Shown here: positions 21,151 through 64,000 of the stretch, piece by piece
Layout of the letters: every line of letters starts with the position of its first letter
Numbering within the stretch: position 1 is the stretch's first letter
Source: Vicugna vicugna
Taxonomy: Eukaryota
Assembly (NCBI GenBank): GCA_013265495.1
Contig: PNXW01001157.1
Coordinates: forward strand, 1 to 64,000
Direction of reading: 5' to 3'
Length of the DNA stretch: 64,000 nucleotides
Program-made: the position numbers and the translations under genes
The notes under the pieces: generated by a model
What the model saw: only the letters and a program-made list of their open reading frames with translations
Told to the model about the DNA's origin: nothing
Databases searched by the model: none

Positions 21151-22789
21151 GTATGGGTGCTATTTGTTTTCTTTCTTTGCATTCCTGGTAATTTTTATTA
21201 GAAGTCAGACAGTATGAGCTTTACTTTATTGGGTGCCAGCTATTTTATGTTCTTCACAATATCCTTAAGCTTTGTTCTGGGATGCCGTTAACTCATTTGG
21301 AGACAGTGTGATATTTTTGAAGCTTTCTTTTAAACTCTGTTAGTGCTAGACCAGAGAAACCTTTAGTTCAGGGCTCATTTTGCTCCCCTCCTGGGCAGTA
21401 ACCTGCTTAGTGCTTTATATAATGTTCTGGGGACTGTGAGGTGTTGTTCTCTGGCGAGGGGGAGCGTTTCTGTCCCTGCGTGAGCTCCAGGAATTGTTTC
21501 TTCTGCTCTGCTTAGGTGGCTCTTTCTTTGGTTTTTGGTTGTGTCTTCATTCCTGTGCCCTGATTAGTACCGGGTTCAAGACTCAAGGAGGACCCTTGTG
21601 CAGATTTTTTGGACTTTTTCTCTGTAACACCATCTCCTCTGCAAAACTTTGCTTGGTGAGTTCTGGGTGCCTTGGAGTCCACAGACTCACAAAACCACCT
21701 CCTCAATGAAGGGAGACCACCAGGGTCCATCTGGGTCCCCCCTCCCTGTACTGGGGCTGGGAACGCCCTCCAAGCAGTGAGTCAGGGCAGTGGTCAGGCT
21801 CATTCTCATTTGTTTCTCATCACTCAGGGTCCTAGTCCTGTGCTGCCTGATGTCCAGTGTCTGAAAAATGGTCATATATATATGTATTTTATTTTTTTAA
21901 TTTTTTGCAGGATTTTTTTTTATAGTTTTTTCAAGTGATCCTTGCCTGTTTGAGCATGAAAATTTCTTTTAGAATCAAGGCAAGCTCTTCGTAGTGTTTT
22001 CTTCAGCTTAGTCTCTCCCTATAGAAGATGCTTATGACCTTCGAATGCTGAGACGACTGAACTGAATGAAATACTCCTGCTTATAAGGTCTAATTATGTA
22101 TTAAAAAGGGATGTATTGGCTATTTGTGTATTTGGTCACCTGTTTCTGATAGTTATTAAAAGATAGCTTAATAAATAGTATGTTTGTATATTAATCAAGC
22201 ACTTTTTACATATAGTGCTTCCTAAAGCCACTCATCGTATACCAGTTCATCTCCAGAGCCCTTGAGATGATTTTCCGTGTCAGTTTCCTGTTCCTCTCTG
22301 TTGACAGCCTTACATGTTCATGGTAATCACAACAGATAGTGTTAACTTCAGACACTCATTTATGCATTGTATCACTTTTTAAAAGACTCAAGTAATGTTT
22401 CTGACCCTGTATTCATAATTTTTGGTATTCCCCACAGTGTGATTGCTACAGGAATTTTTTACAGATGGAAATATAATAGAAATTCTAAAAGCTTGTCTCC
22501 AGAAATGGATGTTTTCTTTACTAAAGTCTCTGGAATGCAAATAGGAAATCCTTGCAATGTGAACTTCCATTTCTCAGTTATTAGCCAGATAAAGAGAAAA
22601 TATCTTACTGTGATCTCACTGAGATTAGGCTCACACACCATCCTGAATTTATGAGAGATCACAATGCTAAGTAACAGGATAGTGTATGTATTTAAGAAAC
22701 CAGATAGTGTCTTTTTACATAAATGGGGGGTGGGCATAAACATTTTCTTTCACATGATGTGACAGTGTAATCTTCCTTTTATCTCACAG

Positions 22790-25700
22790 TCTCAGAAGAC
22801 TCAAAAACCTTGAAAGTGGCTGAAGAAACAGAAAATACAGTGAGAGTCACCTGGAAACCAGCACCTGGGAAAGTTGTCAGCTACCGTGTTGTGTATCACC
22901 GCCATGGGGGTGGGAAACACCTGTTGGCCAAAGTGCCACGCACAGTCACCTCCAGTGTTAAAGCGGCTTCAGCCCTGGGCCAAGTATGACATCACAGTTC
23001 TCCCAGTTTATAGGACAGGAGAGGGAAATCTTAGGCAAGGATCAGCTACAACATGTATGAGATGATAATTTTTTTTTGGAAAGTGTGTAATATTTTTAAG
23101 GGAGATTTTAATGCATCTACTTTCTTTGTAAATGTCTGAAATTGATTCTGCAATGAATTGTTATAATGGCTAGATAGGATGCCTAAATAGCACATGATTT
23201 TTACCTATCTAGTTACCTGCTAAAATGATTCCACGTATTAATGTCCTCACACTAATCTAACCTTCTGAGCTGGGAGTACCGTGTACACTCCCATTTGGGC
23301 AGCGCTCTGTTGTGATGATTTTTGTTGGCTATGATGGCCTCCACTTTCTCACTTATAACCCTTTTTATAAACGTGCCTCGAAGTGTTTTGTTTGTGATGA
23401 TTCCTGTGTATCTCACTTAGATATTTTGAATTCACCTTATTATTATAGGGGCTAATAAAAAAATGCCAAAGCCTAGACTTATGAAAAATATGTGAAAATC
23501 TTACTATCTTTACAGTTCCTCAATTTAAGTCACCCAGAATCCTCAGAACTTGTGACTTAACCATGTCAAGCTTCCGGGTGTCCTGGGAGCCTGCGCCCAG
23601 GGAAGTGAAGGGTTGCAAAGTCACATTCCACCCCCAGGGAAGTTGACCGAAGACTCGGGGAGTCAGTGGTTGGATGGAATGACAGCACAGTTGTTTTCAA
23701 AGAACTCAGGTAGGAATGCCTTATATTCAGTTTTGTCAAAGGACGGAATAACTGATGCAAATTAGCAGGCCTTGCACAGATGATCACTTATGTGTCTGTT
23801 TGCCCTTTAGATATTTAAAGTCAGCCACAGCTGCTTTCTCATGCTTGGTGCTGCTGAAGTTGGGGTTCAGAGACTCAAATTTAAGAGTTGTAATTTTTTA
23901 ATGATTTTTGTTGTTAAGTGATCAGGAATGATATGTTTTCTGTAACACCTTGCTTTTAAAAAATTAACATTCATATTGCACAATTTCAACAAAAGCAGCA
24001 TGTCCCCAGCCTTCCTGTGGGAACATGGGGCTTCCTGTGCCCTCTGGACAGGCCCCGGTGCCTGCTGCTGAGATGCCAGGGCGGGCCGCGGGAGAGAGCA
24101 GGCAGGCCTCTGTGCTCCGTGTCAGCTGGCGGGATGGGGGGCTGACGCGAGGTCTCACTTCAGGCTGAGCAGTGGGAAACAAGGAGGTTCGGGTCTGAGT
24201 GGCATCCTGCATTCACTGTGGTAAAAAGAATGGACTCGTCTGCACTGCCTGGTGCAGTTTATCTGTTTAAGCCATTCATTCAACAGTATTGAAATCTCAT
24301 AAATTTCACGTAAATGCTTGCTGCTTCCTTTAATCAGAATAGGGAGTATGGAATTTATTGAGCCTCCTATGGGCCGGCACTGTGCTGCATGCCTTCTGTT
24401 CCCAGGCAGTTACATCTGTATTGTTCTGTTAGAGCCCGTTGCTTAGGAGAAGTAAGAATGCCAGCCCGATGCTCCCCTGACATGCCCAGTGCCCGCTGGG
24501 GGCTCTGCATCTGATGGGAAGCCAGGCAGGGATTGGGCACTGACCCCCAGTTTTCTCCAAATGCCTGCAGGCTAGTCTCCCTTGATACCTCACAGTGTAA
24601 GCTTAGCTAGAACGTGATGGAAATTATTTTCTCCTCTTGCAGTGTTGTGTGCTGTAACTTCCTCTGAGTGAAAGTCTGTAAATCAAGACGAGTGTTTTGA
24701 GTGAAACAAAAAAGTGCTACCGCTCAAGCCTGTCATACGTACAGAAGTTGTATTTACCATTTCAGGGCAGGCCCCAACTATGAAGGAGACGTGTATGGAA
24801 TGTTTGATGGAGGAGAAAGTTTACCACTTATTGGACAAGAAAGTAATGCCAGTTTTATCCTCTGGTAAGAAACTGAGTTGCAATCCCCTAGGAAAACTCA
24901 TTATTATAAAGCTTTTTCAAATGTGAATTGTTAGGTTAACCGTACAGTGACAATCAACTATTAAAGTTTTACACTAAAATTTACTTAAATAATTTTATAT
25001 ACTTACACATTTTTTCAAACATCCAGCTAAGCACACTTTTGCCAACATTTTTAAGGCTTTTGTCAGCACTGCATTAGTTACATAGGACTATATGATTTAA
25101 AGTTGAGTGTTTACAAATGGTAAATAATGTAGATTTTCTCTCTTTGTAGTGACTAAAATGTGGTTTTATTTTGTTAAAGTGACTAGAAATGATTTACTTG
25201 GGCTGAGCAAGCAGCCTTGGGTTACAGAAATAGGGCAGCAGCTCTGACTTGGGATGCACAGTGGTAAAAAAATGGCGTAGACTTTTCTCCTTGTGCCACA
25301 ATTACAGCTGTGAAATACTTGAAGCTAGTTTTGAACAGTCTTAGAGGTGGGAGAGGTGAGTAGAGTTTCCTTCTAAATATTTTCCATCATTTGCTAATAA
25401 AGAGAAGATGTGGGCAGAGCCGGAGCAGACGTGGAAAGGTGCAGGTGCTGGGAATAGTGCTTGGGAAGCCTCACTCCTGCCTTACTGGCCAGGACATGAG
25501 TGACGCCTTTGCAGTGTGATGAGCATCACTGAATTTTCCTCAGTGAGGTTTTTTCTTTTCCTTTTTTTGTAATATAAAAATCAGATACTAATAACATGGC
25601 AAGAAGTTGAAAAATTCATAGCTGGTAACATAAGCTTCTGGAAAAGAGAGCATTTGAAAACATGGATGACATAAATGACAGTGTCAGCTTTCTACTTTTC

Positions 25701-28137
25701 ATGGTTGTTCTGTTGTTTCTCCTGTGAGACTAGCTGACTTACATGTTTATCTTGCGGCCTGTGTGCACTGAGGCCACTGGGCACTTTTGTTTCCCGAGTG
25801 CCCAGCTCTGTCTCAGCGCTTGTGTTCATCGTCCCTGTATCTGTCCACCCTCACACTTGTTTGCATCCTTTTTCTAGATTGTCTCTTTTCTCTCTTGATT
25901 TTTTAAGTGTGCAGACTTCATCATATATATTTACCTGACTGTCATACACAGTAGATGATTAAGTTAAGTAATGAATAACTGAATAATATAATAGCTATCA
26001 GGTTTTTAAATAATATATTTTTATTTCCTAAATGTCCAATTTTAAGAGTTATGTTCCTAATCCTTCTCAAGATAGGTAATACTTAACTAGGAGCTTTCAT
26101 TAATTTAAAAGATATTTTTGGCTCACTGGAATCTTTTGCAGCTTACACATTTTGATAGTTCATCTCATACTTGTCTGCTAATGACTGTTGAATGTTGAAA
26201 AAAATGCAGGGGCATGGTAGAGCTGCATGGTAGGGCATGGGCATAGCATGCACAAGGTCCTGGGTTCAGCCCCCGGTGCCTCCATTAAAAATAAAGCAAA
26301 TAAATAAACCTACTTACCCCCAAATAAAAATAAATACTAACCCCCCAGCAGCGTATAAAGGAAAGGAAGTATGTTTAAAAAATATTGAGAAAAAGGCAAC
26401 ATCTCATTTTTAGATCATATTAAACATTTTATTAAAATTATTATTGCCTTATATTTTAACGGCTGTACATTCCCACTTACATGTATCAGCTTTTGGGTTT
26501 GTGACTTCATTCAGATTTACATGACAGTTTGTAAGTCTCCATGTTCTACAGTTGTGGCTGAGAAATAGAGTCAGAGAAGAGGGAAAGCTTTTCCATTGAA
26601 ATAGTTATTACAGGAATTGATGATTCCTGTAATTCCTAATAAGGTTAATAAGTCATAGGGGTATATTTTTGAAGTCTTAAACTCCAAATCACCTGGCTAA
26701 GCCACAGAGCTGAGACAGTTACTCGACACTGAGCACCTGGGGGTGGCAGAGGCGTGGCTAGGAAGTCACCCTACAAAGGACTTGTTCCTGACTCTGTGCT
26801 GTCTCATGATTGCTGCGTCATGGATGGAGTATCTGACCAGGGCCAAAGCAGACGTGCTGCTGGTGGACGCATTGTGGAGCCCCTGCCGGGCAGGCTTGAG
26901 GACTGTGTGGCATTTCATTTCTCGTGCTGTGGAAGTCTTTGAGCTGGGCCCCGAAAGAGTGCAGATTGGTAGGTCTGACAATATTGAAGACATTTAGACA
27001 TTTCCGATATGCTCTTTGATATACGCGGACACCAATGGTGTCACTTTAACCCTTGCTTATGATACTGGGGACCCCAGAACAGGGCAGCAGTTAAATGCTC
27101 ACAGAGACAAGCTTGTTGCAGGCTGTGGTGAACTTACCTTACAAAGGAGGCAGGACCCTCACAGGTGAGTCAAAGTGGTCTGGTGCACTGGGAGCTCTTG
27201 CTTTTTAGTCAAAGCTTGTGGTGGAATAATGATGTGATAGATTCTCTTTTAAAAATCCCCATAGGCATGGCTTTCACCAACAGAGCTTCAAGACCCAAGG
27301 TGACATGAGGCCTGGGGCCCAAAAAATTGGTGCTCTCGTCAGTGATGGAAAATCCCAAGGTGATGTTGAGGCCCCGGCAAAGCAACTCAGGGATGAAGGC
27401 GTGGAGCTGTTTGTCATTGAGAAGACTGGCTATGCCCCTGGGGCTTGCAAGTATGCTGAGGATGGTTTTGTAGTTAAAAATACTTTCTGAAGCATGGACA
27501 AAGAGTCAAACACGTTTTTCCCTGTTACATAATTTATCAAAATGCTGTGCCAGGACGTTAATTAATTTCCTTCTTTTCTCCTTGCAACGGGCCGAAACTC
27601 TGTGGCTTCTTGAAAGAGAGTAATGGGTCAAGAGGACAAATGTACTATTACAAGGACTCAGGAAAAATTTGTTTGACTTTCCACAGCGCTGTGTTTGTTT
27701 TTGATATTTGTTATTTTACTTTCCAGAAAAAACATTGAAGAGACACTTTTTGGTGGGGAACTGGTGCTAGAAGCACTTAGGAGAATCTAAACAAAACAGA
27801 TTTCGGTTAATACAATTTTTTGTTCCTATTTTATAATTAGAGATATGTAGTCATTTGATTATTGAGGAAAATCATATCTATGTCCTAGTTAACATTGAAT
27901 ATACAGGGGAAGCCCATAAAATATTGGCTTTATTCGGTTGATTTTTTTCTGAGACTTGTTTTTTAATTTGTACGCATCCATTTTTCCAAGGTATGAAAAG
28001 TGCTGACAAAGCTGAGTTAAAAATAACTGCAGCAGATCCCGGTGATCCCCACGCATGCAACGTGGCAGATTTTGCGCCCCTCTCCAGGATCGTGGGTGGC
28101 CTCACCCTTAACTTGTGTAAGAGCATCAGAGGTCCGG
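22790..28137 (+). pseudogene. COL12A1: Unprocessed partial COL12A1 pseudogene: two FN3 domains plus VWA3, 7 exons (22790-23054, 23516-23709, 24766-24864, 26822-26968, 27050-27164, 27265-27419, 27991-28137)
   Basis: Peptides [36 protein letters not shown]...[56 protein letters not shown] and NVADF..LSRIV occur in collagen XII order. Frameshifts in several exons, acceptors mutated at 26821 (CAT) and 27049 (TAA), donor lost at 27420. Confidence 0.95.
26209..26340 (+). mobile_element. tRNA-derived SINE (Vic-1-like)
   Basis: AGCATGCACAAGGTCCTGGGTTCAGCCCCC core and A-rich tail. Confidence 0.85.
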
Positions 28138-28370: not shown

Positions 28371-30579
28371 TTTAGTCCCTGCCTTTTTTTTTTCCCCTGG
28401 TAGCATCAAACTATAAATGACTTCTGGGTTATTTGAGGGTACATTTTGTTTGTATATGCCTGTACCACACACATACACACACACACACACAAATGAGATT
28501 GGGGAAGGAGAGACGCCCCCTCTCCTGGCGCGTGTCTCCTTTCTGGGCAAGCGCCTTCCCTCTGTGTGGCTCCTAAGTTAACTATGAAATAGTGGTTTCC
28601 AGGTGCTATTTTCTAAAGCGTGCTCCCTCCGCATTTGGTTAGGGCTGGAAGAGGGGTCTTACGTGTGATTTGCTTTGCCCCAGCTGCTGATGACCACATT
28701 TGATACTTTGCACTTGTAACCACAAAATACAAAGACAAATTAAAATATTAGAGCTTGGACTTTTAGAAAGGATGTCCTCTCTCTCTATCAGTGAAGAAAC
28801 AGATTTAGAGAAGTTAAATTACTTACTCAGGGTCAAATGGTTAAAGATGTTTATAGAGGTCCTTGAAAAAAGGTAGCTATTGATAAGGAATTAAGATTTA
28901 TAAATAAAACTATGGAAGTGAATTTTAGTAACAAAGGATGGTGCAAAATAGTTACTCTCTGTGTAAATCATTGGACAAAAATGGTAAGTACCAAATTGAA
29001 GGTTTTCTGAAAAGTAATGATAAAAATTATGGCTCTTATTATATGAGAAAAATTTCATTTAAATATATATAGATTATGTAAAGATTGTCTTTCACTATTT
29101 CGTTCTGGTTTTGGAAAGTTAGAATGAGTTTAACAAAGTGGCAGAAATGGGTCACGTGCTTTGGGTACTGAGGATACACCTATTTGAACGTTGCTTACTG
29201 TATTTCTCTGCCAATTTGGATTTTGAACAACAGATGGACCTTTCCCCTGGAGAAACAGACCAGCCAGGAAGGCAGATAGTGTAGGTTTCTGGCTCTGGAT
29301 TAGCTGAGAGAAGTGCAGTTTTATTTAGTTGGAGGGAACTTTGAGTATGGATGAAAGTGTCTTTTATCTTTTATTCTTTATTTTTAAAAAATACCTACTG
29401 TGTAATAGTTACATTCATTTAGTTTCCCAGACTGTAAAATTGCTTGATAATTTTTTACAATAATGGTCAGGATACCAAGAACGGAAGGGTTTTTTTTTCC
29501 CAGCTTTGGCTTACAAAGGAAGTAGAACAGGTTTACATGAGAATGAAAGACATGCTCATGGAGTCATTGGATCAATTCTCCTGTAATTATTATTTAGGAT
29601 ATCTTTCTAATGGTCATATTGAACTGAGTGTTTCTACTTTCATTAATATTTACTCTAAGTATTTTTCTGTATTAGTCATTTCACCTATACTGGTCTCCAC
29701 AGAGAAAACAATCACAGGCAGTAGAATCTTCTCAAGTTTTAGAAAATGTGGTGGTTCTTCCTCTGTCTTAATGAGAAAATGGTTAGCTGCTTTTATTACT
29801 GACTTACATCTTGACAGGGAACTAGACATGAGTAAGAAAGCAGTTCTGTCCTCACAGAGTGTAACTTAGAGTTAAGGGGATGAGACGTGAATATAAATGG
29901 TCAAAATGATAATGAGGGCAGTGAGCTTGGGTGGTGCCAGTAGCGACAGGGGCAGTGGGACTGTCAGGATCCCAGATGTCACTCACTGATGCATGTCCCA
30001 GGTTAGAGAGAGGAGAAAGTATTCAAGGGTGACTCAGAGGTTCTGAGCTCTAGGTGACTGATAAACTTCTGGTGCCATCTGGAAGATGGGGAGCAAGTTT
30101 TAATGAGAGACAGTGAGCTCAGGGTTGAGTCTTAAGAGGCTGAGGAACAACTCCTTTGATCGTCCATTCAGAGAGGACTTCTGGGCATTGGGCCTCTAAA
30201 CTGATTTACTGTAACTTAGTATGTTTGTAGTCCCTAAGATTTCCTGTGAACTTTTAGGCACATCCAAAATGCGTTCCTAATGGTTGGTTTGTTTTGCAGT
30301 TGTGCTTGTGAAAGCTGTACTAGTCTCTTGATCTCAGTGGGCCTTTTCATTGTAATGATTAGAAACAAATTTTTTGATGGCTCTGGGTTTTGTGTATTTG
30401 GCTTGGTTACCAGGAGATAGAGAAATAATTGACAGTGAAAGCTCCAAACTGCTGGCAGACATTCCAGATGGCTTGAGCTGCAAACTAACTAGACTGCTGG
30501 TCACAAAACTAACACGTTGGGTAAGTTAGTGAACATGTATTGCCTTTTTTTCTCTATGCTTAGAAGCTAGTTTCCTCTG

Positions 30580-30669
30580 TGGGAAGGTTATAGCTCAGTG
30601 GTAGATAGAATGCGTGCTTAGCATGCAGGGGTTCCTGGGTTCAATCCCCAGTACCTCCATTAAAAAAAA
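30580..30669 (+). mobile_element. tRNA-derived SINE (Vic-1-like)
   Basis: TATAGCTCAGTGGTAGA...CCTGGGTTCAATCCCCAGTACCTCC plus A tail. Confidence 0.9.
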
Positions 30670-33600
30670 CAGGTCACAGAATACTCTGAGTTGTCTAGAT
30701 TTAAATATTATATCCATTACTTTTTAAGTGTTTTACTCTTGCCACCTGTCTTCATATATATCCCAACCACACCCAGCTTTTCTTCCAGAAAATGCTCCAA
30801 CTTTCTGAAATTCTTTTCTGCTACTTTATTTTACAGAGATATCCATGAATGGCAATAGATGCATATGTGTATTTAAAATTTACATTGGTAAATATTCTCA
30901 TTCACGTATCTTTAACTTCATTTGATAGATGGCGTATCAGCTTTCAATTTAGGAGTAGAGGAAGATGCAGAATCCTCTTCTCATTTGGAGGTACTGTTCT
31001 ATCATTATCATTATTATTATTATTTAGAAGTATAAACTGTGAGTTATATTAACACATAAATGAAGGGATTCTCTGAGGTTAGTTACTCACCTTTGCACTT
31101 GCCCATCCAAACTTCCTCTTATGTTTTCTAGTCCACCATTACGAGCTTCATTGTATGCAGGGTGTCATGCCAGTGCCTAGTACACTCTGTGAGGTTTCCA
31201 GTCTCACCTAATGAAACCAGTGTATGTAGCACAAAAAGCAGTGTTGAGAAGTCCTATGGAATCAACTTGGCTTCTTGAGTTTTTTCTCTAAAAAGTAAAG
31301 AACTATTCTTTTTCAACCTGTGACCAATTGTGTGTTTCTTTTGTATAAATGGATGTGTCAGACTCCAGGCAGGTGTAGAGAAAAATAGGTTGGATTAAAA
31401 AGAAGAGTGTTTTCATGTTGTGTTTTGCTTTGTGTTTTTGCCATATTGACCTTGAAAAGCAAATGCCTGTGAAATGGAATTATTATAGTTTCCTTGTCAT
31501 AGATCTGCAGGGACTATTTCACGAGAACCAGAAGCATGGTGGAGGGTGATAAATATGTGGGGTCAGTGTACCAACAGTTTGGGTGAGTGATGTTTTAATG
31601 AAGAGAACCCCTTTTTGATAGTTTTTGTGGCCTGCATGTTGCACTTTGATAATGACCATAGTTGAAGTACTGTAAGTAACAGTGATGACATGTTCAAAGC
31701 TGATGGCTGTGGGGAGAGGTAAGGAGGCCCAGAGCTCTTGGATCTGGAGAACTGCTGCCTAGTGGCCCAGCAGTGTGTGTGAAGTCAACAGATACGTTGG
31801 CATGCACTAGCTGTGGGGTCTTGGAAAAACTTGTTGGAGCTAGTTTGAATGTCAGCAACCTTGTTGGTAAAATGGTACTGATACCTCTGAGATATGTGCA
31901 ATGAACAAACATGGTAACAAATGTGAAAACATGTTGTCGTGTGTAAGTGGTGCTGTAGGGGGTGAGACAGAATGATCACTGGCAATGCATGGCTATGTGT
32001 TTAGGACACTTTTTTGACACCTGAAAGACAATAAATGACACTGGAGTTAAGCATGGGAAAGTCAGAGCGAGCACATGGATTTCTCACTTGGGGTGTGTCA
32101 CGTTTCAGTGGACTTAATGCAGATCTCTGATAAGTACAGAGTGCTTTGGTACTTGAGGCCAACTTGAGATTTTAGATGTTTTGACCTTAAAGAAATTCCT
32201 TCTCCTGAACACCCACTGTGTGCCGGGCAGTTAGACACTGAACATACCAGGTGAGGGGTGAGGCTGTGGGGGTGGAAACAGAAGAACCAGTGAACAGGAA
32301 TTCTCTGTCAGTCACAGTGAGTCCTTCAGGTAAAGAAAATGGAAAAACTTCAGTTTTTTATGAAAGTTATGAAAGTGGGTGATTTTAGCTAGGATCGGGG
32401 TGGGGTAAGAGTGGAACTTACTAGTCGGCACAGATCAGAGTGTGACCACAGCTGCCAAGGAAAGGATGGGATGGAGCCACTCACATGATGGCCCAGGGGA
32501 GGGCTCTTCTGGACTGAGAACAGGGGGTCACATCTGTTTATCGTTGGACCCCAGCACCTTAGAGTGACCAGGAAGCAGCAAGTGGGTAACCGTCCTTACA
32601 ACCATTTTTATTGTTGTTGTTTGTAGGAAAGAAGACGTGCACAGTGAGGGCCTGGCATATGCGGGGGGTTAGGAAATAAATGTCCTCATCCTTCCCTTAT
32701 GGCAGTCCCTGTGCTTTTTTGAGGAATTGCGTATCTACATTTAAAGTTTTGCTGTTATTAAAACAGCATTTTTCTTACTACTTTGCTACTTTATTCAACT
32801 AGTTTTCCTAACTGTAAAAGTTTTATCAAATAATAGATTGTGCTAAGCTACTGCTTACTGAAATGAAGCAGCTTCTACAGTGTTCTGTCAGTACTCAGTG
32901 TGATAGACTCCAAGGTTTGTTTCATGCCAAGGATCTCATTTTAATACTAAATCCGTATCTGTCCTTAGAAATATTTTAAATTTATAGCAATATACTTACT
33001 AAAATATTTGTTTAAAAATAAGTGTATTTTAAATTTTACTTTTTTATTGAAGTATAGTCAGTTTACAATGTTAGTTTCATGTGTACAGCAAAGCAATTCA
33101 GCTTTACCTACAAAAATAGGTATTTTTAAAAATGTCTTCCTTTTTGTGGGGGAATTCAACATGAAGTTAGGTGTTTTGAAGTTAATTCTTTGTTGAAATG
33201 TGAATATAAGTCAGTGTTTTGCATGTGAAAATACTTGCTCTGGCTTTCCATGTTCAGTTTACTGAATCAAAAGCCAAATGAAGAAAAAAGATAGACTAGA
33301 TCTAGAAAATGTATATGAAATTTTCTATTTAAATGTTTGGTTTCCCAAGATATTCTTCTCTTATTTTAAGTCTAATTGCTTTTAAAATAGGAATTTTTTT
33401 TAAAAAGTTAGAAAATGCAGGGATTTTCTTAGCAAGGGATTAGGAAATCTTTATTCAACTCATTATTAATATTGATTTTAACAGAGTATCTCTGAGAGTC
33501 GACCACAGAGGTATGTGGATATTTCATCTGGAGCTGCAGGTCAAATGGAGGAAAATATATTAAGTGGACAAATAGAAGGTAAGAGCTGTATTTTATTAAA

Positions 33601-35417
33601 AAGTCTTTTGATAGGATGTTGATTTCAAACATGAATTCAGATATATTCTAAAAGCCAAAGAAAATCACCTGGTGAAGGTATAGTGAGGAAAAAGGTGAGA
33701 AATGGAGGCAAGTTACATAACTTAGGTGTCCACAGCGAATTAGACTGAGGGTGCCGTTTAAGGAGCTATGTTGTTAGTTTCACTTCAAGGTCCTCTGCCA
33801 CCTAAGGACAATCAGGAGGTAAGGAGGAGGGAAAGAGGGGAAGAAGAATGAGCGAGGCAGAGAGGACAGGCAGTAAGTGAAAGGAAGGGAGGGGCCTGTG
33901 GGGAATGGTGGGAAGGCAGAGCAGTTCTTTGGAAAGAGGAAGAGTGTCTGAAATGTGAGATGGATCTGAAGTGAGCTTCCAGCACCACAGCTTGTCCGAG
34001 AAACACGAATGTTCCCACTGTCCCCGTCCTCCTCATTGTTAGGAGGGCAGTGGGGGCTGAGGTGCCTGATCACGCAGAGCTGGGTTCTCCCTGCCGTGGT
34101 TGAACACAGGCAGGTGTGGGCAGCTGTAAATTTCTGGACCTTCATGTCATGTGGTGTGTTGCTGCCTTATAGGATGGTGTCACCTCGGCCAAGAGAAGAG
34201 AATAAGGAAGAGGAAGAGAGCAGGGTGTGTTACGGGGGAGGGGAGGGGCGGGGGGGGGGTCTGTGAAGCTGTTTCCTGATTAAGAGTCCGTTAGAATGTG
34301 TGCAACTTCTAGTGCAGTTTCAGGTTGGGGAAGCGTTACAGTGGGCACTTGAGGCTAGATTTCAGAAGGATCAATTATGTCAAGTAGACTTGGTATAGAC
34401 CAGAATTTCTCAAATTGTAATTAGTCACCCAGGGACTGGGTGAAAAATGCATGTTCTGATCAGCAGGCCTGAGATTTTGCATTTCTAAGAAGTTCTAAGG
34501 TGACACCCTTGTTACTGGTCTTGAGGCCATGCTCAGAGCAGCAAGAGGGTAGACGTGTGTTTAGAGAAATCTGGAAGAGCCCCTGGAGAGCTCACGATGT
34601 AACAGCATCAGGAAAAGTGTGGTTTTGTTTTCCTGTCTGAGCACGTTTATAGCCAGAGGGAGGCAAAGAGTTGAAGTAGAAATTACCCATGTAAGGTACT
34701 GTGATCAAGCAGAGAGGAAAAAGAAGTGGTGGGGGTCATCCATCCAAAGAATCCAGAAGGGGAAGAGTTACGACCACAGATCTAGGGATCCCTTTGAAGA
34801 GGGGAGGATGCAGTGAAAGGAAGGAAGGAGGAGAAGAAGCAGTAGGTAGCTGATGTAGGAATTGATGAGGAAACTTGAGAGAACTCCTTCTAGATGGCAT
34901 CATGTATTTGCACTGAAGCAAGATTAGGTCATTGACACTGCAGAGAATTCTGGAAGCAGGAAGGGGCTGGAACTAGGCAAACCACAGCCACTGCTCACAA
35001 CTATCAGGCATCAAGGATGTATGTTGCCTTGGTATTTGTTATTCAGATGAGATTAGTTTGAATATGGAAGCACTGGATGTTTGTTAGTTTTTTTTTTTTT
35101 TAGGATAGCTAATTTTTTGATACTATGGTTGTTTCACAGAAAGCCTTTTAAACATTAGCATTAGATACCAAACCAAACTAATTTTGAAAACAAAAGAAAT
35201 TAATAGGGTTCATTCCCTAAAAGCTCAAATTGTTTTCAGTAAATACTACAGTGGTTTTGAAGTATAAAAGACTTTTAATGTCTAATAATCCTGTGGCAAT
35301 TAAATTTATTTTTTTCCTTTTTTGATAATCATATTTCAATGTGGAAAATTTAATATACATTATTTCTTAGGTGTGTCTTATATATCTTCTTGCACGAGAG
35401 GATCAAGAAACTTTGAG

Positions 35418-37197
35418 ATGACAACCAAGACCACGTCCACCCCGACAGCATGGGCCGCTCTCTGCTCCACCTTTACCACCGGGCTGCACCACCACCAGTT
35501 TGCCATGGGTAATGACATTGCTGCGCTTGTGGTTGACAGTGGCTCCAGCATGTGCAAGGCTGGCTTTGCAGGCGATGATGCCCCCCGGGCCATCTTTCCC
35601 TCCATCATGGGACGCCCACGGTACCAGGGCGTCATGGTGGGCACGGGCCAGAAAGACTCCTACTTGGGTGATGAGGCCCAGAGCAAGAGAGGCATCCTGA
35701 CCCTCAAGTACCCCACTGAGCATGGCATTGTCACCAACTGGGACGACATGGAGAAGATCTGTCACCACACCTTCTATAATGAGCTACGTGTGGCCCCTGA
35801 GGAGCACCCCATGCTCCTGACTGAGGCCCCCCTGAGCCCCAAGGTGAACTGTGAGAAGATGACCCAGATCATGTCTGAGGCCTTCAACACCCCAGCCATG
35901 TACGTGGCCATCCAGGCCGTGCTGTCCCTGTACACCTCTGGCTGCACCACTGGCATTGTGGTGGACTCTGGTGATGGAGTCACTCACACTGTGCCCACCT
36001 ATGAAGGGTATGCTCTCCCCCACGTCATCCTGCATCTGGACCTGGCTGGCTGGGACCTGACAGACTACATCATGAAGATCCTCACGGAGCGTGGCTACAG
36101 GTTCACCACCACGGCCGAGTGGGAGATCGTGCATGACATCAAGGAGAAGCCCTGCTACATCGCCCTGGACTTGCAGGAGATGGCCGCCACCGCCTCCAGC
36201 TCCTGCCTGGAGAAGAGCTATGAGCTGCCCGATGGTCAGGTCATCACCGTCGGCAGCGAGCGCTTCTGCTGCCCCGAGGCTCTCTTCCAGCCCACCTTCC
36301 TGGGCCTGGAAGCCTGTGGCATCCACGAGACTACCCTCAACTCCATATGAAGTGTGATGTGGACATCCGCAAGGACCTCTACACCAACACGGTGCTGTCT
36401 GGCGGGACCACCATCTACCCCGGCATCACCAGCAGGATGCAGAAGGAGCTCACCGCCCTGGCCCCCAGCATGGTGAAGGTCAAGATCATCGTGACCCCCG
36501 AGCTCAAGTACTCCATGTAATGGGCGGCTCCATCCTGGCCTCGCTGCCCACCTTCCAGCAGATGTGGATCAGCAGGCAGGACTATGACGAGTCCAGCCCC
36601 TCCATCGTCCACTGCAAGTGCTTCTAGGCGGACTGAGTTACTGTCCATCGTTCTCTTGACAAAAACCTAACTTCAGTGGAAAAGGAGATGAGTGGCATAG
36701 CTTTATTTTGTTTTGTTTTTTAATTTTCTTTAATATTTTTTCTCTTTTTGGTACTTGACTCAGGATTTAAAAACAGTGAAGGTGATAGCAGTCAGTTGGA
36801 TTGAGCATCCCCAAAATTCTACCTTGTGGCCGAGGACTTTGTACATTCTTTTAAATAGTCATCACAAATATTGTGAGATGCATTGTTACCGGAATTCCCT
36901 TGCCTTTCCAAAACTACCCGACTTCTCTAAGGAGAAGGGCCAGTCCTCGCACAAGTCCACAAGGGAGGGTGGTAGCATTGCTTTTGTGTAAGTGATGTTC
37001 TCCAAATGAAAAAAGATTACCTTAATACTTGTTTTTGTTTTATTTGGAATGGTCAGACCCCCTTTTTTGTCCCCAAACTTGAGATGTATGAAGGCTTTTG
37101 GTTCTGGTGAGAGTGGGTTGAGGCATGGAGGCAGCCAGGGCTTATCTGTACACTGACTTGAGACCAGTTCAATAAAGTGCACACCTTAAAAAAAAAA
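35418..37197 (+). pseudogene. ACTB: Processed beta-actin retrocopy (5' UTR, CDS 35505-36627, 3' UTR, poly-A)
   Basis: Intronless actin CDS; ACTB-type 3' UTR (TAGGCGGACTG...GACTTGAGACCAGTT.AATAAAGTGCACACCTT); A tail; TSD AAACTTT(G/A)AG. A 1-nt deletion gives TGA at 36348-36350 and there is a second lesion near 36518. Confidence 0.97.
37171..37176 (+). terminator. AATAAA polyadenylation signal of the ACTB retrocopy
   Basis: AATAAA 11 nt upstream of the A tail starting at 37188. Confidence 0.85.
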
Positions 37198-37902
37198 GAA
37201 AAACTTTAAGTGGGTTAAGCTAGAGGATACAAGAAATGTAGGCACACCAGTAGCCCACATGGGTGTGGGAAAAAAATGAACATTTTAATGAACTATTCTC
37301 CAAGTGTGTCGCCAAGCTGATCAACTCATAGCACTCTCTCTGATGAGGAGTGAATTACATATTCAAATAAAGTGTCATCACAACTGTGGACTTCCTAAAT
37401 TACAGGGCGAATTGAAAAACCTGATGCATCCTTGTAGTCTGATGGTGTCAACTGCATTAAATATGTGCTGCTGCGTTAGTCTCCTTGGAGTCATGATTTA
37501 TTCTGATTAAAGCTCACTTTTCTCATCAATCAGCATGTTCCCATTGGTATATGTGCAATTTTCTATTTTATAAACTCATTTGGAACATAATCATACTTTT
37601 GAAATCTTAACTGCATGTTCTGTTAAACCTATATTCCTGTTTTTATTCATTATCTGTAATGGATTCATGTTTCTGTCTTGTTGCTGTCTTAACTGCCCCT
37701 CAAAAACAAAACACCAAAACCTAACGTGTTCATTTCCAAAGCAAGTGTGAGGGTTACACTCATTCCTAACTCTGCATGACTGTACAGTTGGCTTTTGTGT
37801 TTACATGTCATTGGTTATGTGTCCCTTTAGTCTTTCAGATTCTACTGGAGAATATCCTCACTTGAAGGTAAGAACTTTTATAATTTTACCTTGAATTTTT
37901 TA

Positions 37903-37961
37903 GTGGGGGTACTGGGAATTGAACCCAGGACCTCGTGCGTGCTAAGCAGGCACCCTCCCCC
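37903..37961 (-). mobile_element. tRNA-derived SINE, internally deleted
   Basis: GGTACTGGGAATTGAACCCAGGACCTCGTGCGTGCTAAGC. Confidence 0.85.
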
Positions 37962-38535
37962 CTTGAATTATTACTATAGATTATATCAAGTGTACATTAT
38001 TTATTACTCTTTGTTTCAAAACCCATTCAGCTACAGTTGGAGTGAGATTCTGTTCCTAATAAAACAGGAGGGGTGAAGGATTTACAAACATCCAGATCAG
38101 GTAAACTTTGCAATACAAATTTAACTCTGAAAAGAAGTGCACTAAAATATTTAAAATGTTCACTGTCTTCTCATTTCTAATTCCTTCTTTTTTTTTTCAA
38201 ATTTAATTGAAAGATTTGACATAAATAAGACACGTTATTGTTACTATCCATGTTTGGGAAAATATATTCATAAGCATAAGAAAAAGATTTTTAAAATATA
38301 AGCTTTAACTCAGAAGTTTCCATTTATGTTGGGATACACTAAAGTGCTCAGTTTGGAATCCCTACACTACTTAGGGATTCTGAGAGATTATTAGTCGCTA
38401 AGATTTTTTTCCAGTGTTTTAAAATGCTTAATTGAATTCTGAGCTTTATGTAGAGTAAAGCTTCACTTGCTAACATGTCGATTGTATTTCAACTTTAATT
38501 ATTTCATTTTAGTGTTATTACATTGATGATATATA

Positions 38536-38621
38536 TTTTTTATTTAATGGAGGTACTAGGGATTGAACCCAGGACCTTGTGCATGCTAAGCACATGCTTT
38601 ACCACTGAACTATACCCTCCC
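38536..38621 (-). mobile_element. tRNA-derived SINE (Vic-1-like)
   Basis: GGAGGTACTAGGGATTGAACCCAGGACC...CCACTGAACTATACCCTCCC. Confidence 0.9.
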
Positions 38622-45860: not shown

Positions 45861-48800
45861 TACTTATATATAAAACCTTTTTTACTTTTAAAAAGACTTT
45901 GAAGTAATAACTGGTTAATATCTAGTGCAGTGAGATCATGCAGCTTTATACTGATATGGATGAGCTTTAAGGCATTTGGGGGTTTTAAGTCTCTGCCTTT
46001 AGCTTTTGCTGCAATGATAAGAAAAGAAACTGGGGTTGAGTCGGAATAATGTTCTTAGAGTTGAGAGTAGAGCAGGGAGGTGGTGGCATGTCCTGCTGCC
46101 CAGATGGCCATCATGCTACAGACCAAGGGGTCTGCTGTGGTGAGCGTCTGGGTGAAGGTCTCCATCCTCTGGCTAGTTGGTTATTTCAGACCATAATTAT
46201 CTCTACATAAAGCATACGTGCATATGCAGGAGTTCAGTAGTTTTTACTAAGCACTCACATGATGTTTAACATACTAACCGGTTTCACCCCTCCCTACAAG
46301 AACATTAACTGATCAGTCTTAGTCTGCTTTTAAACATGGGAAAGTCAAGGCTGTGTTTGTCATCTTGACATTTCCTATATTACTAATTCAGTCACCTCAG
46401 CGCTCAAGTTTCCTGTCTGTGAAGCACTTCCATAGCCTCCACGTGTGGGCTTTGAGGTATATATGGCCTTCAAGAAAAACTTCTCATTTCAAAAAGTAAA
46501 CTCCCTCTGTGTGGGTCCCAGAAGGGCTCCACTTTAGAGAGTGCTCTCAGGTGGTATGACTTTCCATCCCAGTGGCTGCTGAACAGTGAAGAAGAAAGGA
46601 ATTCATTGACTCAAGGGCACAATCTAGAAGTTAAAGTTAAAGGGGGATGAATCCTATATAGTTCTCATTAACATATATAATCGATAATATTGTCTAGTTT
46701 TGTGGAATGACTTTATAATAAAATGCATAAGTTTTGAGAACTTGTACCTGTGTTGGGGGCTCTTTGACATTTTCAATAGTTTACTTTCAGCGGCTATTTT
46801 ATTTACTGACTTCCTACTAGGTTCACATGCTTGCTTTTCCCTCTCTTTTTTATTAATGTGCTGCTGCTGTTCTGCAATAGCAGTGGTTTGTTTGTATTTA
46901 TTTTCAAAACCTTTGCATGGAAACGTATGGTTTTTGTCTTTTGTGTACGTGTGAATGAGCCACATGCTGATGTGTGCTTCTGAGTACCTTCACACATGTA
47001 CTCTCTCTCTGCTTGCAAACAAAAATAAAGATAAGGGACAGTATTTATGTAAACTGGAATACTGATAAAGAATACATACCAAATATGTTTACACTTACAT
47101 AGTATTTAAAGTTGGCTCAGTACATTAGACGGAGCTCATGTAGCATTTACTTAAATCTTGTGTTTTACTCTGGTTTTTCAAATGTGGGATGAATGGATGA
47201 CATGGGATAAATATATACTCTGAAAAATATAAATAATTATACATACTCTGACAAATACATGATCTCATTACATCTCAAATTCATACTCTAATAAATACAT
47301 GATCACATTATATCTGATACATGACCATGAACTCTTTCCTATGTTTTATCATTCAAACTCATGGCTTTCCAGTTTTGAACTTTATTTTTTCCTCATCGTA
47401 GGACATATAATCAAAGTAGTTTCCTAGAAATATTTTTTACATTTCTATTTTGGATTCTATATTCTAAAACCAAAGTGCCCATATCGAGACCTCAGGCTGA
47501 TGTTTATTACAGCATAGTGATCACAGTCATCATTCAAGTTGTGCTTTGTGGATAATACACACATTATGGAGTTTTCTTTATAGAAAATGTGGAGGACAGC
47601 ATGATGTAGAGGATGTACCTTTACACAGGTAAAGCTCAGGGTCAGAAGGAAGGTAAGAGAGTCTTCAGAAACTTAATAGATTTGACTTATTTCTTTAATA
47701 TTTTAATATATTTAGCTGTTGCTTCAAACAATTACCTTAAGACAAATAATTTTGGAGTTTATGACTAAGTGAAGACACTAGAAACAGTAATAGGGAAACC
47801 AAACTGAGTAACGCTTAAAACTTCAAAACCTTTAAAAATAATGGAATATTTAAAGAAGGAAAATGAATTATTTTAATTCGCTTTGATTTTGCATATTGTC
47901 ATTCTGTGCTTTCCACAGGCATAGGAATTTTTTCCCCATATTTATACTGAGAGAGGACATATAGTTTTCTATAGTAACTTCCCTTTTCATCTTGTGGTTA
48001 ATTATTTGCTCATAGCTCACTGTCTTCAGACCTTATGAAGCTTTGTGGTGAAGTGAAACCTAAAAACAAGGTAAGGAGAACTGAAAACACCAGGTAACAT
48101 TTTTACTGCTGTTCTTTATGATTTCTATTGAACACGGAGGGCGCAGGCTCGGCTCTTCACAGGCTCACAGGTGGGCATGCTTTCACCGAAGCTTTCACGT
48201 GTGAGAAAGTGTTTATTATACTCCCCTTAGGAAAAAAGATATATTGAACAGTTTCTCCTTTATGGGGCTTGTGACCTACTCTATTCTTGCACTTTTCCCA
48301 CCAGATAAGATATGATTATGTAGAGCAATCTTTCAAAATAGTTAGATTGATAGGAGATTTTTGAAATTTAGCATTCTAATATGTTCTTCTGTGTTCCTTA
48401 TTTATTTTGCTTAATTGTATCCAGAGGTGGTTTGAATAGGCCAACTCTTAATCATCATTTTCTTTTAAAAACTGAGGCTATAATGGATACTTGTGAAGTT
48501 TAAAAAATATGAGTAATATACTGTTAAATGTGTAAGATGCACACGATATATTTCAGATTGCGTGTTGGCAGCTACTGGGTGAATTATAACCACCTTAAGA
48601 TGTTTTTCGGATTTTTGCAGTGCTTGGTAAATATCTGTTGAATGAATGGGTGGAATCAGGACCTGAAAGATCAGTACTGTGCTAGTGGACAGGATGGACT
48701 TGAGGCCCACAGTGGTCAGCCAGGTGATGCAAATGAATATTTCAGTTGGATGTAAGACAATTAGCAGGGGTCAGCATGATTACCTGAAGAGGACATGCCC

Positions 48801-49579
48801 CATCTAAAACAAGTGCCACCACTCCACTATTGCTCATTTTTGCCATGATGGAATATGGGCCTTAGAGAAGCCTTAAATATGGATTTCAATGGAGAATTTC
48901 TTTATCTTTGAAATACTGGGCTTGCCAATCAAAAAACATCTGCAGGCTTCATGTGTGGTCCTTGAGCTACTGGCTTGGTAACGTGTGGTTTGCGTCTTAT
49001 TATTCTAAGTGACTAAGCAGAAGGTACCCAGACTCAAAGAAAACATTCTAGTGTAGTTTGGATCCAGTCTTAAGTGGGGGAGAAAATCTCTTAAGGTGAC
49101 TTTGGGTCTCAGGCGCTGTGAAGGCCTCGCTATTCATGCCCTTGCAGGATGCCAGGGAGAGACGTGAAGGCGGGGCCTCAAGGCCGTCTCCTGAAAACAC
49201 CACTGTGGTTAGGAAGCCCGGGGAAAGATGGTTCCACTGGCAGCGGAGAGGACTGGCAGGATGAAAGGCTGGCCTGCAGGGCTTGTTCTTCTTTCTTTTT
49301 CTTTTTGGCAGTGAAGGGTCATCATCTTTATCTGCATTGGACACGATATTTAAAATATGAGTCTTGCCAGTTCTGAGAAGAGAAGTGCTCCCAAACCTGC
49401 ATATACCCAGCACTCTCTTCTCCAAACACAAAGGAGCCCACAGCATTTCTCAGAGGGATGCTCAGCTGACAGCGCTGAAGGCAGCCCCCGCCAGGGCCAG
49501 TGTGACAGTAATGAGAACCAGGAGACCCACAACGTCTTCTTCCTGTAGTTCTGGGCTCCGTGAGGTCTTGTTCAAGTGC

Positions 49580-49990
49580 TGCCTTCTAGCAAGCCTCGAC
49601 CCTCCAGCCCGCCGCCCAGCTGGCCGCCCTCGCTGCTCCGCAGCTGCCGCTCGTCCTCGGGCTGCGCGGCGCTCGCGGGGGAGCCCGGCCGGCCGGGCCG
49701 GGAGGCTGCCAAGGGCGCGTGGCCGCTGGCGGAGGCGGGCCCGCAGGGCCCGGGGTGGGGGGATGCGGCGCTCGCTGCCCAGCCGGCTCCACTGCGCGGG
49801 GCGGCGGATCCCGGCAGCGAAGATGAGCCCCGTCAGAAGTGCGAGGCCCAGCGGCTGGGAGCGAGTGGAGGGACGGACCGAGGGCGGGCGGGCGCCCGGA
49901 GCGGAGGTGCGGGCTGCAGGGGGAAGGAGGGGGTTGGTGCGCGTCTGCAGGACTTACTTTCCGGAAGTTTTCTCGGGCTCTCCGCCACTC
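49580..49990. promoter_or_regulatory. CpG island with GC boxes and an ETS motif
   Basis: Very GC- and CpG-rich ~400 bp in AT-rich surroundings; GGGCGG boxes; CCGGAAGT at 49961-49968. Confidence 0.75.
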
Positions 49991-62846: not shown

Positions 62847-64000
62847 TCCTTAAAAAAAAAAAAAAAGGAATTTGGAAATTAAATCCTATTGAGTTGAAAT
62901 GTAGAATATACATGACAATGGGCAATGAGACTAGGAAGGTGAGAAGGAAGCATGTATAAGAATTTGGGGAGCTAGTTAAAGATTTTTAGCATTTAGGGAT
63001 GTTCCAAGACTCAGTTTAATCAGAAAAATTTTTGCTCATTTTCTATGAGGGAAATAAAAGAGTTTAGCTTATGCGTTGTTAATAATTGCAAGCAATTCCC
63101 CTATTAAAAAAAATTTACTCTACAAAAACATAATTTTCTAATGATTCAAGTTAAATTGATTTCTCCAGTATAATTACACATTCAGCATGTCAGAAAAACA
63201 AAATAAAATAGTTTTGTGATTATGTTTTTTGAGTCAAAGATAAAATCCATCCATAAGTGACTCCTGGAAAGAAACGTATGTGTATTTATGAGTATGGAGT
63301 GTTGTCAGGAGGTAAGAGCAGATTTTGAAATGGCTGATTTAGGATGGCTGTTTAAAATTCAGGGGCAATTTGGAGCAAGACTCTTTTCACATATCTATTT
63401 CAAAATTTTGTGTAATTACTTTTTTAATACCGTGTGATGCATCCCTAGCTTTCATCCAATCCTTTACACCTGCTTTGCCCTTGAACCTGTGGCAAGTTAG
63501 AAGTTAGGAGTTAGGATGCCTGTTTCAGGTTAATGGAATAATTACTGTTTCCTTATCTATTTTTTTCTCATAAAAGTCTAATTTAGTTCATATTGACAGT
63601 ATTGCCTCTTTTTTTTGTTTTAGATTGTACTTTTAAAGTATGGAATCTGGTGACTGGGCAGGAGATAATATCACTGAGGGGTCATCCCATCAATGTCATA
63701 TCTGTAAAATACTATAATTATACAAGTTTGGCCTTCACAGCATCAGCATCTTATATTAAGTTGTGGGATATCAGAGACTCAGCAAAGTGCATTCAAGTGC
63801 TAATGTAAGTAACTTAAAGAGAAGCAGCATAAGGGGCAAATAGCCCTTGTTTATAAATATGAGAAAAGATAGGTCTGTGAATGCATTTTTGTTTATTTAT
63901 ACCTGTCTACTTGCAAGTAACATTACAGTGTTTACAGTAAGAATGCCAATAAAGTAAGGTTTAAAAACCTTTTGAGAAAATAATATATAAAAGCTCAATA

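Follow-up and report, generated by a model that had tools for sequence, protein, structure and literature searches.

A decayed vicuña copy of a multi-copy camelid ANKRD26–actin chimera whose better-preserved members appear constrained

Did a second group of mammals fuse an ANKRD26-derived gene to a retroposed beta-actin, as the ancestors of the primate POTE-actin genes did? The question is raised by a stretch of 64,000 nucleotides (nt) from Vicugna vicugna (positions 1 to 64,000 of contig PNXW01001157.1; hereafter the window), in which a processed copy of the beta-actin gene ACTB interrupts an ANKRD26-like exon and continues its reading frame. An earlier note, made from the letters of the window alone, read the locus as an independent, POTE-actin-like fusion. 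We compared the window, which is C586:1-64000 in our numbering of the contigs, with the rest of the genome assembly (2.03 Gb in 12,405 contigs), with predicted camelid proteins and with known systems. The answer that we regard as probable is that the window holds a decayed copy of a multi-copy camelid ANKRD26–actin chimera, the better-preserved members of which are constrained.

The host of the retrocopy is an ANKRD26-derived genomic fragment of introns and small mid-gene exons (30502..38611; this and all further features of the window lie on the + strand), which blastn aligns collinearly with the true ANKRD26 locus of the same genome (C3565:2139926-2135149) at 69–82% identity. Its first exon in the window, exon A (33485..33578; 94 nt, or 31 codons plus 1 nt), has kept the AG at 33483-33484 and the GT at 33579-33580, translates without a stop and matches ANKRD26-like proteins. 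The following exon is split. Its left half (35371..35420) starts behind the acceptor ttAG, with AG at 35369-35370, takes its frame from the G carried over from exon A and includes the left copy of the target-site duplication (TSD; 35408-35420); its right half (37201..37262) opens with a mutated right copy of the TSD (37201-37213), reads NFKWVKLEDTRNVGTPVAHM and ends at the GT donor 37263-37264. Between the halves lies a full-length ACTB retrocopy (35421-37197), a single intronless block against all six exons of the parent gene, which we located at C6266:2018392-2020947 and whose coding sequence (CDS) we rebuilt from its splice sites. The retrocopy consists of a portion of the ACTB 5′ untranslated region (UTR; 35421..35504), which matches exon 1 and the beginning of exon 2 of the parent and which we call the linker; the actin coding part (35505..36627), with 90.2% identity to the parent CDS and the ancestral TAG at 36625-36627; and the 3′ UTR with poly-A (36628..37197), in which AATAAA at 37171-37176 precedes a run of ten A at 37188-37197. 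Intronless, colinear with its parent, polyadenylated after a signal and flanked by a TSD, it is a processed retrocopy of the L1-mediated type.

The TSD is probably 13 nt long (AAACTTTRAGATG) and not only 10, because the parent transcript starts with ACAGCC about 25 nt after TATAAAA and because the right flank of another copy, on contig C6005, keeps AAGATGG. With a duplication of this length, the Met codon at 35418-35420 would therefore belong to ANKRD26, not to actin. The 84 nt of the linker amount to 28 stop-free codons, in frame between the host exon and the actin ATG at 35505; because this piece of ACTB 5′ UTR is free of stops in the host frame, host exon, linker and actin form one reading frame. 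From stop to stop the open reading frame (ORF) of the window spans 35304..36350 and 348 amino acids (aa), and joining exon A to the fused exon gives 94 + 977 nt, or 357 codons. The frame does not reach the end of actin. The actin CDS has lost 3 nt near 36172, 1 nt between 36346 and 36347 and 1 nt near 36518, and the second of these deletions creates a TGA at 36348-36350 that ends the fused frame and cuts actin at residue 281. These features are as the earlier note had described them: the borders of exon A, the acceptor at 35371 and the donor at 37263 are correct; the ten TSD positions that it listed (35408-35417 and 37201-37210) are right; the host frame does run through the ACTB 5′ UTR to the ATG at 35505, with 357 open codons when exon A is included; and the frameshift that it placed at about 36347 is the 1-nt deletion at 36346/36347, with a second one downstream.

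Both flanks of the retrocopy come from one exon. Contig C3565 holds that exon uninterrupted at 2136547-2136657; the left flank in the window ends at C3565:2136607 and the right flank starts at 2136619, so that the 13-nt overlap is the TSD and the empty site is contiguous. Residues 475-512 of a bat ANKRD26 match C3565 in one piece (2136657-2136547) and the window in two (35379-35420 and 37220-37276), and residues 443-474 of the same protein match exon A. The proposal that the retrocopy splits a single ANKRD26 exon thus stands, as a single contiguous exon, in C3565 and in bat and marmot ANKRD26, accommodates both flanks; the failure to align that had been named beforehand as fatal to the structure does not occur. 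Bat and marmot ANKRD26 are collinear with C3565 exon by exon, from MKKIF and the ankyrin exons to the host exon, and the best match in the genome to CCDC144C (569 bits) lies 24 kb downstream on the same strand. A peptidase-M41 gene is found about 25 kb upstream of this ANKRD26 locus; in human, YME1L1 is the neighbour of ANKRD26.

Protein comparisons lead to the same gene. An exhaustive search with the 156-aa N-terminal extension of an alpaca model against 1.84 billion representative proteins gave 24 hits, and 7 of the 10 clusters looked up among them contained members named ANKRD26 or ANKRD26-like; the ANKRD26-named relatives came from bat, marmot, colugo, muntjac, seal, cat and pangolin. Only a dromedary protein among these representatives matched into the linker. 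A homologue search with the ANKRD26-derived part against proteins of 1260–3595 aa found nothing among 78 candidates. By these alignments the host exons are homologous and colinear with exons of ANKRD26-named proteins.

The window locus itself does not qualify by sequence as an ANKRD26 gene, if such a gene is defined by N-terminal ankyrin repeats and a C-terminal CCDC144C coiled coil. No CCDC144C match (PF14915) occurs anywhere on contig C586 (65,240 bp), compared with 58 matches genome-wide, and neither an ankyrin-bearing camelid model (P0011) nor bat ANKRD26 gave an ankyrin hit within the window. The actin was inserted into a mid-gene exon upstream of the coiled coil, after a Met that aligns to residue 491 of the 1303-aa bat ANKRD26. 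Homology to ANKRD26 reaches about 800 bp further in better copies, to C3565:2140682, adding one exon, and the family carries a fragment of about 5.5 kb with three to four small exons, not a whole gene.

A large family of ANKRD26-like sequences lacking actin also inhabits this genome. The region of exon A is present at 18 places, and 12 of the 58 CCDC144C matches cover the large coiled-coil exon. The true ANKRD26 occupies about 2.110–2.158 Mb of C3565, and a second locus of the family lies on the same contig at 3.32–3.34 Mb. One protein model of Vicugna pacos (P0035, 1198 aa) has 17 separate matches to the ANKRD26-derived exon region, apparently a tandemly repeated exon array.

Is the fused exon unique to the window? 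The 190-nt junction region is present at full length on seven other contigs at 76–88% identity (C3083 88%, C149 84%, C6005 83%, C9929 80%, C6494 80%, C595 76% and C3551 76%), and an eighth further contig, C9881, which ends inside the actin start, has the 3′ junction. As the same junction recurs on eight further contigs, the insertion was a single event that was later amplified, and the sequences describe a family of at least nine copies, not one locus. An in-frame junction arises by chance one time in three, as the earlier note cautioned; an identical junction on seven other contigs is far beyond chance.

The copies fall into two subgroups. Subgroup A comprises the window, C3083, C9881, C6005 and C149. 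Subgroup B (C9929, C6494, C595 and C3551) shares with the window only 34454-36857, lacks exon A and has its acceptor AG displaced by exactly 3 nt. Within subgroup A, a longer duplicon common to the window, C3083, C9881 and C6005 (30501..44993) is conserved at 86–90% identity; C6494, C9929 and C149 were examined within 10 kb only. The upstream edge of the duplicon, at about 30.5 kb, lies beside an element with an A-tail (30583-30665) that we take to be a tRNA-like short interspersed element. Flank divergence is about 0.06–0.07 within the group of the window, C3083 and C9881 and 0.20–0.24 between the subgroups, a value that could exceed the age of the camelids. The split between the C9881 and C3083 copy types seems to predate the divergence of camel and alpaca, because C9881 alone shares C196 and G237 with the camel model. 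In the C149 locus, from about 3694 onward, the right exon half after the poly-A is replaced by a G-run and sequence similar to the 5′ end of a LINE-1; the fused ORF upstream is unaffected.

An actin CDS can be read in eight of the copies (that of C595 breaks off after 82 nt). C3083 and C149 have neither an indel nor a stop in the actin CDS, and the sole change in C3551 is an in-frame gain of 6 nt that leaves it open; the actin frames of these three copies are open over 375–377 codons, within fused stop-to-stop ORFs of 456, 428 and 421 aa for C3083, C149 and C3551, respectively. One frameshift each is found in C9881, C9929 and C6494, two are found in the window, and C6005 combines one frameshift with the only stop codon among all eight copies. 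By contrast, two unrelated ACTB retrocopies of similar divergence carry 5 and 12 indels and 2 and 5 stops. The path from the start of the fused exon to the start of actin is open in seven of the eight readable junctions, and exon A with the left half is stop-free in all four subgroup-A copies. In C3083, C6005 and the Camelus models the actin ATG is replaced by GTG with the frame still open; translation of these forms must therefore begin upstream. Family-wide, about 1 stop is observed against 8–10 expected (Poisson P about 0.002), where the expectation is our own estimate from the summed branch dN (nonsynonymous divergence) multiplied by 0.03 stops per changed codon. The argument from missing stops carries weight only at this family-wide level and together with the contrast in indels. 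A collection of 15 billion proteins contained no exact match (0 of 4) to the ORFs of the window, C3083, C149 or C3551.

Rates of change in the actin module point the same way. In a tree that includes the two control retrocopies, the family forms a clade of its own (94% support), and on this tree we estimated branch lengths in dN and in synonymous divergence (dS) by a least-squares fit to pairwise Nei–Gojobori distances, with 200 codon bootstraps. The neutral controls gave dN/dS of 0.55 and 0.58, which, rather than 1, is the baseline for sequence this rich in CpG and in G or C at third codon positions. Clearly under this baseline are C149 (0.17 [0.11–0.27]), the stem of C3083, C9881 and the window (0.08 [0–0.21]) and C9881 (0.26 [0.11–0.54]), and indistinguishable from it are the window (0.64 [0.34–1.25]), C6005 (0.58) and C9929 (0.95). 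A second yardstick set the proportion of nonsynonymous differences against the divergence of the flank, that is, adjacent intron and 3′ UTR (pN/p_flank). This ratio is 0.35 for C149 and C9881 (39 changes at 865 sites, binomial P = 5e-17), 0.38 for C149 and C3083 and 0.63 for C3083 and C9881, compared with 0.95 (C6005 and C3083) and 1.02 (C9929 and C6494) for dead pairs; for the window against C3083, pN/p_intron is 0.85. Taken together, nonsynonymous change in the best copies amounts to 0.35–0.5 of the flank divergence, against about 1.0 in dead copies. Over the 76-codon extension formed by exon A, the left half and the linker, comparison of C3083 with C149 gives pN/pS (nonsynonymous over synonymous differences) of 0.37 (Fisher P = 0.003). 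The rates show the C9881 type, C149 and the stem of C3083, C9881 and the window to have kept actin under moderate purifying selection, from which we infer a function.

A further retrocopy, at C9051:4382391-4383514, is of the gamma-actin type (N-terminus VEEEIAAL), and its only lesions are a 3-nt deletion and a stop at codon 373. Its dN/dS against ACTB is 0.15; it was left out of the controls, its parent gene being a different one.

Camelid gene predictions contain the same junction. Searching with the junction region brought up Camelus proteins that are 94% identical and are filed in RefSeq under the name of ordinary actin: isoforms X1–X6 of Camelus ferus 'actin, cytoplasmic 1', from 734 to 404 aa (for example XP_032350394/5); forms from C. 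bactrianus (for example XP_010961755); LOC105107140 of C. dromedarius (807 aa); and two Vicugna pacos models, XP_031529256 and XP_015095676 (531 and 404 aa). Over this size range of 404–807 aa, the models from three Camelus species and alpaca splice exon A to the fused exon, across the junction from 33578 to 35371 predicted for the window, and continue through the linker into a complete actin, and the 404-aa forms of C. ferus and alpaca start at the ANKRD26 Met of the insertion site. Exon A, fused exon and linker of the window are 70–87% identical to the camelid models, exon A corresponding to residues 268-298 of camel model P0004. C9881, at 96.2% identity to a camel model over 339 aa, is by this measure the orthologue of the camel gene. 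Against the two alpaca models, C9881 and C3083 show only 4 differences each among 375 actin residues, and the four of C9881 all fall within a frame-breaking change at codons 38–43.

What would such a protein look like? Residues 347-719 of P0004 match PF00022 (Actin; E = 1.9e-136), and a full-length Pfam Actin match in an open frame predicts an actin fold for the intact paralogues. In the 719- and 610-aa camel models Pfam finds Actin only and no ankyrin repeat; residues 1-204, the N-terminus, have no Pfam domain. Of 19 matches to this N-terminus, 10 are named 'transport and Golgi organization protein 1 homolog' or '-like', all of them camelid paralogues, and its first look-alike in an atlas is a 'cTAGE family member 4' cluster (0.91), which we treat as a lead only. 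Going by the names of its camelid relatives, the modelled N-terminus may be cTAGE/TANGO1 (MIA2/MIA3)-like.

The 5′ exons that encode this putatively cTAGE/TANGO1-like part in the camel model are themselves multi-copy, with 22 matches in the vicuña genome, including C11423:117727-121174, C6005:29557-31535, C5737, C5988 and C3778. Other RefSeq models join such exons to ankyrin repeats (P0011), a KH domain (P0010) or fibronectin type III (fn3; P0018 and P0020). These combinations suggest a system of mosaic duplicons in camelids.

Several observations weigh against a functional chimera. The RefSeq XP entries are predictions, and the splice is seen in models only. The branch values come from least squares with two neutral controls only, not from codon-model likelihood, and the branch of C3083, at dN/dS 0.46 [0.27–1.06], is indistinguishable from the neutral baseline. 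For the 76-codon extension, pN is about 0.7 of the intron divergence, a value not clearly different from neutral. Between the actin module of the camel model and ACTB, 37 of 375 residues differ, and constraint on actin appears moderate, far weaker than in canonical actins. A single copy would stay stop-free under neutrality with P of 0.10–0.29 in a mutation simulation with 70–90 substitutions. Finally, C9881, in other respects the best-conserved copy, has a small complex change at actin codons 38–43 (net +1 nt) that breaks the frame; the alpaca RefSeq model is intact at this place, and the change could reflect genuine decay or a mistake in the assembly. Among 11 sequencing runs, one RNA run labelled reproductive system metagenome contained 0.06 of the sampled words, a small share that does not count as evidence for expression; in four probable DNA runs, from one organism, the share was 0.68–0.75.

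With these points in hand, could the pattern be a neutral coincidence, a dead retrocopy in a dead fragment that was passively duplicated, with open frames by luck and RefSeq models that are artefacts of actin homology? The prior of one in three for an in-frame insertion, the sizeable chance that any one copy stays free of stops and the neutral evolution of the window, C6005 and C9929 all fit such an account. We nonetheless consider it quite improbable, because on the same yardstick by which dead pairs give pN/flank of 0.95–1.02, C149 gives 0.35–0.38 against C9881 and C3083 (P about 1e-17). It would also have to accommodate zero indels in C149 and C3083 against 5 and 12 in the controls, the deficit of stops over the family tree and a frame that is open in three Camelus species and alpaca. 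A smaller selected unit deserves more consideration, namely a 404-aa extended actin retrogene that begins at the ANKRD26 Met, to which the upstream exons would have donated at most a 5′ UTR or promoter. RefSeq lists forms of this length in C. ferus and alpaca, subgroup B is entirely without exon A, and, measured against intron divergence, exon A and the left half show no clear departure from neutrality; by our count, the roughly 80 residues before exon A differ between camel and alpaca models at 15 of 80 positions, compared with 29 of 375 in actin. We still think this reading unlikely, given that exon A with the left half is free of stops in every one of the four subgroup-A copies and that seven of eight junctions are open to the actin start. 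In addition, the shift of the acceptor AG in subgroup B is of exactly 3 nt, four species have longer spliced models that keep the frame, and the extension has the low pN/pS given above.

That the window copy is itself a working gene, either as a truncated chimera of 357 codons or spliced to upstream exons such as the fn3 and von Willebrand A (VWA) remnants at 22.8–27.5 kb, strikes us as very improbable indeed. Its exon A and fused exon do have intact splice sites, its 357 codons are open, and the same strand has fn3 and VWA ORFs further upstream. Yet its actin is cut at residue 281 by one frameshift and followed by another, its own branch and its pN/p_intron against C3083 are both close to neutral, none of the start-bearing exons of the family models is found in the window, and its exact ORF is missing from the 15-billion-protein collection. 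Exons for residues 1-267 of camel model P0004 were sought throughout the window and none was found; since the duplicon breaks off at about 30.5 kb, the copy has neither the model's upstream exons nor whatever promoter goes with them. Because those exons are absent, the actin frame is broken twice and the copy evolves neutrally, the window copy is to be classed by its sequence as a dead pseudogene member of the family. The reading of the window copy accordingly changes to that of a 5′-truncated, twice-frameshifted, neutrally evolving duplicate. As to other points that the earlier note raised, no ankyrin or other gene-model exons are detectable upstream in the window, the camelid models use the predicted splice, and paralogues with an intact actin frame and dN/dS below the neutral controls exist elsewhere in the genome.

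The history that best accounts for a decayed copy within a partly constrained family would run as follows. The alignments show that an ACTB mRNA, complete from its transcription start, was retroposed into a small mid-gene exon of an ANKRD26-derived fragment. It landed directly after a complete host codon, bringing 84 nt of stop-free 5′ UTR. Segmental duplication, as the shared junction shows, then spread the fused exon to at least nine places. The protein modelled from the better copies would consist of a cTAGE/TANGO1-like coiled-coil and proline-rich N-terminus, acidic exons derived from ANKRD26, a linker of 28 aa and an actin domain. By analogy with what has been proposed for POTE-actin, such an N-terminally extended actin would most likely join or bind the actin cytoskeleton, carrying its foreign N-terminal module with it.

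How close is this to POTE-actin? The passages of PMC7073761 that concern these genes describe POTE genes as primate-specific descendants of ANKRD26 whose products contain cysteine-rich repeats, five to seven ankyrin repeats and helices, with actin at the carboxyl terminus; an actin retrogene entered one POTE paralogue before the split of Old World monkeys and apes, and actin is present in 8 of the 14 human POTE genes, in frame in 4 (PMC7073761). As far as these passages go, POTE-actin (POTEE, POTEF, POTEI and POTEJ) and the camelid family share an ANKRD26-derived host, an in-frame beta-actin retrocopy as the C-terminus, subsequent duplication and partial loss of the frame. They differ, on the same account, in lineage (primates and camelids) and in the site of insertion, which is carboxyl-terminal in POTE and a mid-gene exon before the coiled coil in camelids; unlike POTE, the modelled camelid product is without ankyrin or cysteine-rich repeats, derives from an ANKRD26 fragment of about 5.5 kb and has a putatively cTAGE/TANGO1-like N-terminus. 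The camelid chimera is, judged from its sequence, an analogue and not a member of POTE-actin, alike in origin and logic but not in architecture. The proposal of an independent fusion thus survives as to the ANKRD26 and actin origin and, given the different insertion point, as to independence, but not as to a single locus or an ankyrin-bearing product.

Other comparisons delimit the family further. The RefSeq camelid models named 'actin, cytoplasmic 1' or '-like' belong to the same family and have the same junction, and the window is their frameshifted paralogue without the upstream exons. Ordinary ACTB processed pseudogenes, two of which served as controls, are likewise intronless, with poly-A, a TSD and CpG decay; they differ in lying outside exons and in their many indels and stops, whereas the camelid family has open frames and reduced nonsynonymous change. 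ANKRD26 homologues are described as over-expanded in primates and artiodactyls at sites of rearrangement (PMC4141111); the word 'actin' has 0 occurrences in that paper, and camelids are not named in its relevant passages. We found no description of a camelid ANKRD26–actin chimera in the main texts of open-access papers and bioRxiv preprints.

The remainder of the window contains features of other kinds. Upstream of the duplicon, open frames at 22771-22989 (+; fn3, PF00041, E = 7.5e-6) and 27233-27490 (+; VWA, PF00092, E = 8.5e-8) resemble remnants of collagen-like exons; P0018 and P0020, the dromedary models in which fn3 is fused to the putative cTAGE/TANGO1-like part, have no match in the window. 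The GC-richest stretch, 48001-50000 (GC 0.50), has ORFs at 49361-50052, with long GC-rich frames on both strands and no Pfam match, and is possibly a CpG island or the promoter of a neighbouring gene. Near the end of the window, 63587-63808 (+) looks like a WD40 or beta-propeller exon of another gene, with weak Pfam matches (best E = 2.2e-7).

Beyond the window, we see the chances as evenly balanced that camelids re-invented the idea of POTE-actin, in the form of a selected, expressed, lineage-specific family of actin fusions with a cTAGE/TANGO1-like N-terminus that is hidden in databases as 'actin, cytoplasmic 1'. If so, the same two parent genes would have been fused twice in mammals, a rare case, and ANKRD26-derived duplicons would be suggested as a preferred cradle of actin chimeras. 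POTE-actin has been regarded as a primate-specific oddity; a second, independent capture in another mammalian order, once more within an amplifying duplicon family, would make the outcome repeatable and would provide a natural replicate in which to study the role of an actin with an N-terminal extension and the reasons why fusions of this kind persist. A practical problem of annotation is apparent as well: in at least four camelid species, models labelled 'actin, cytoplasmic 1' are three-part chimeras.

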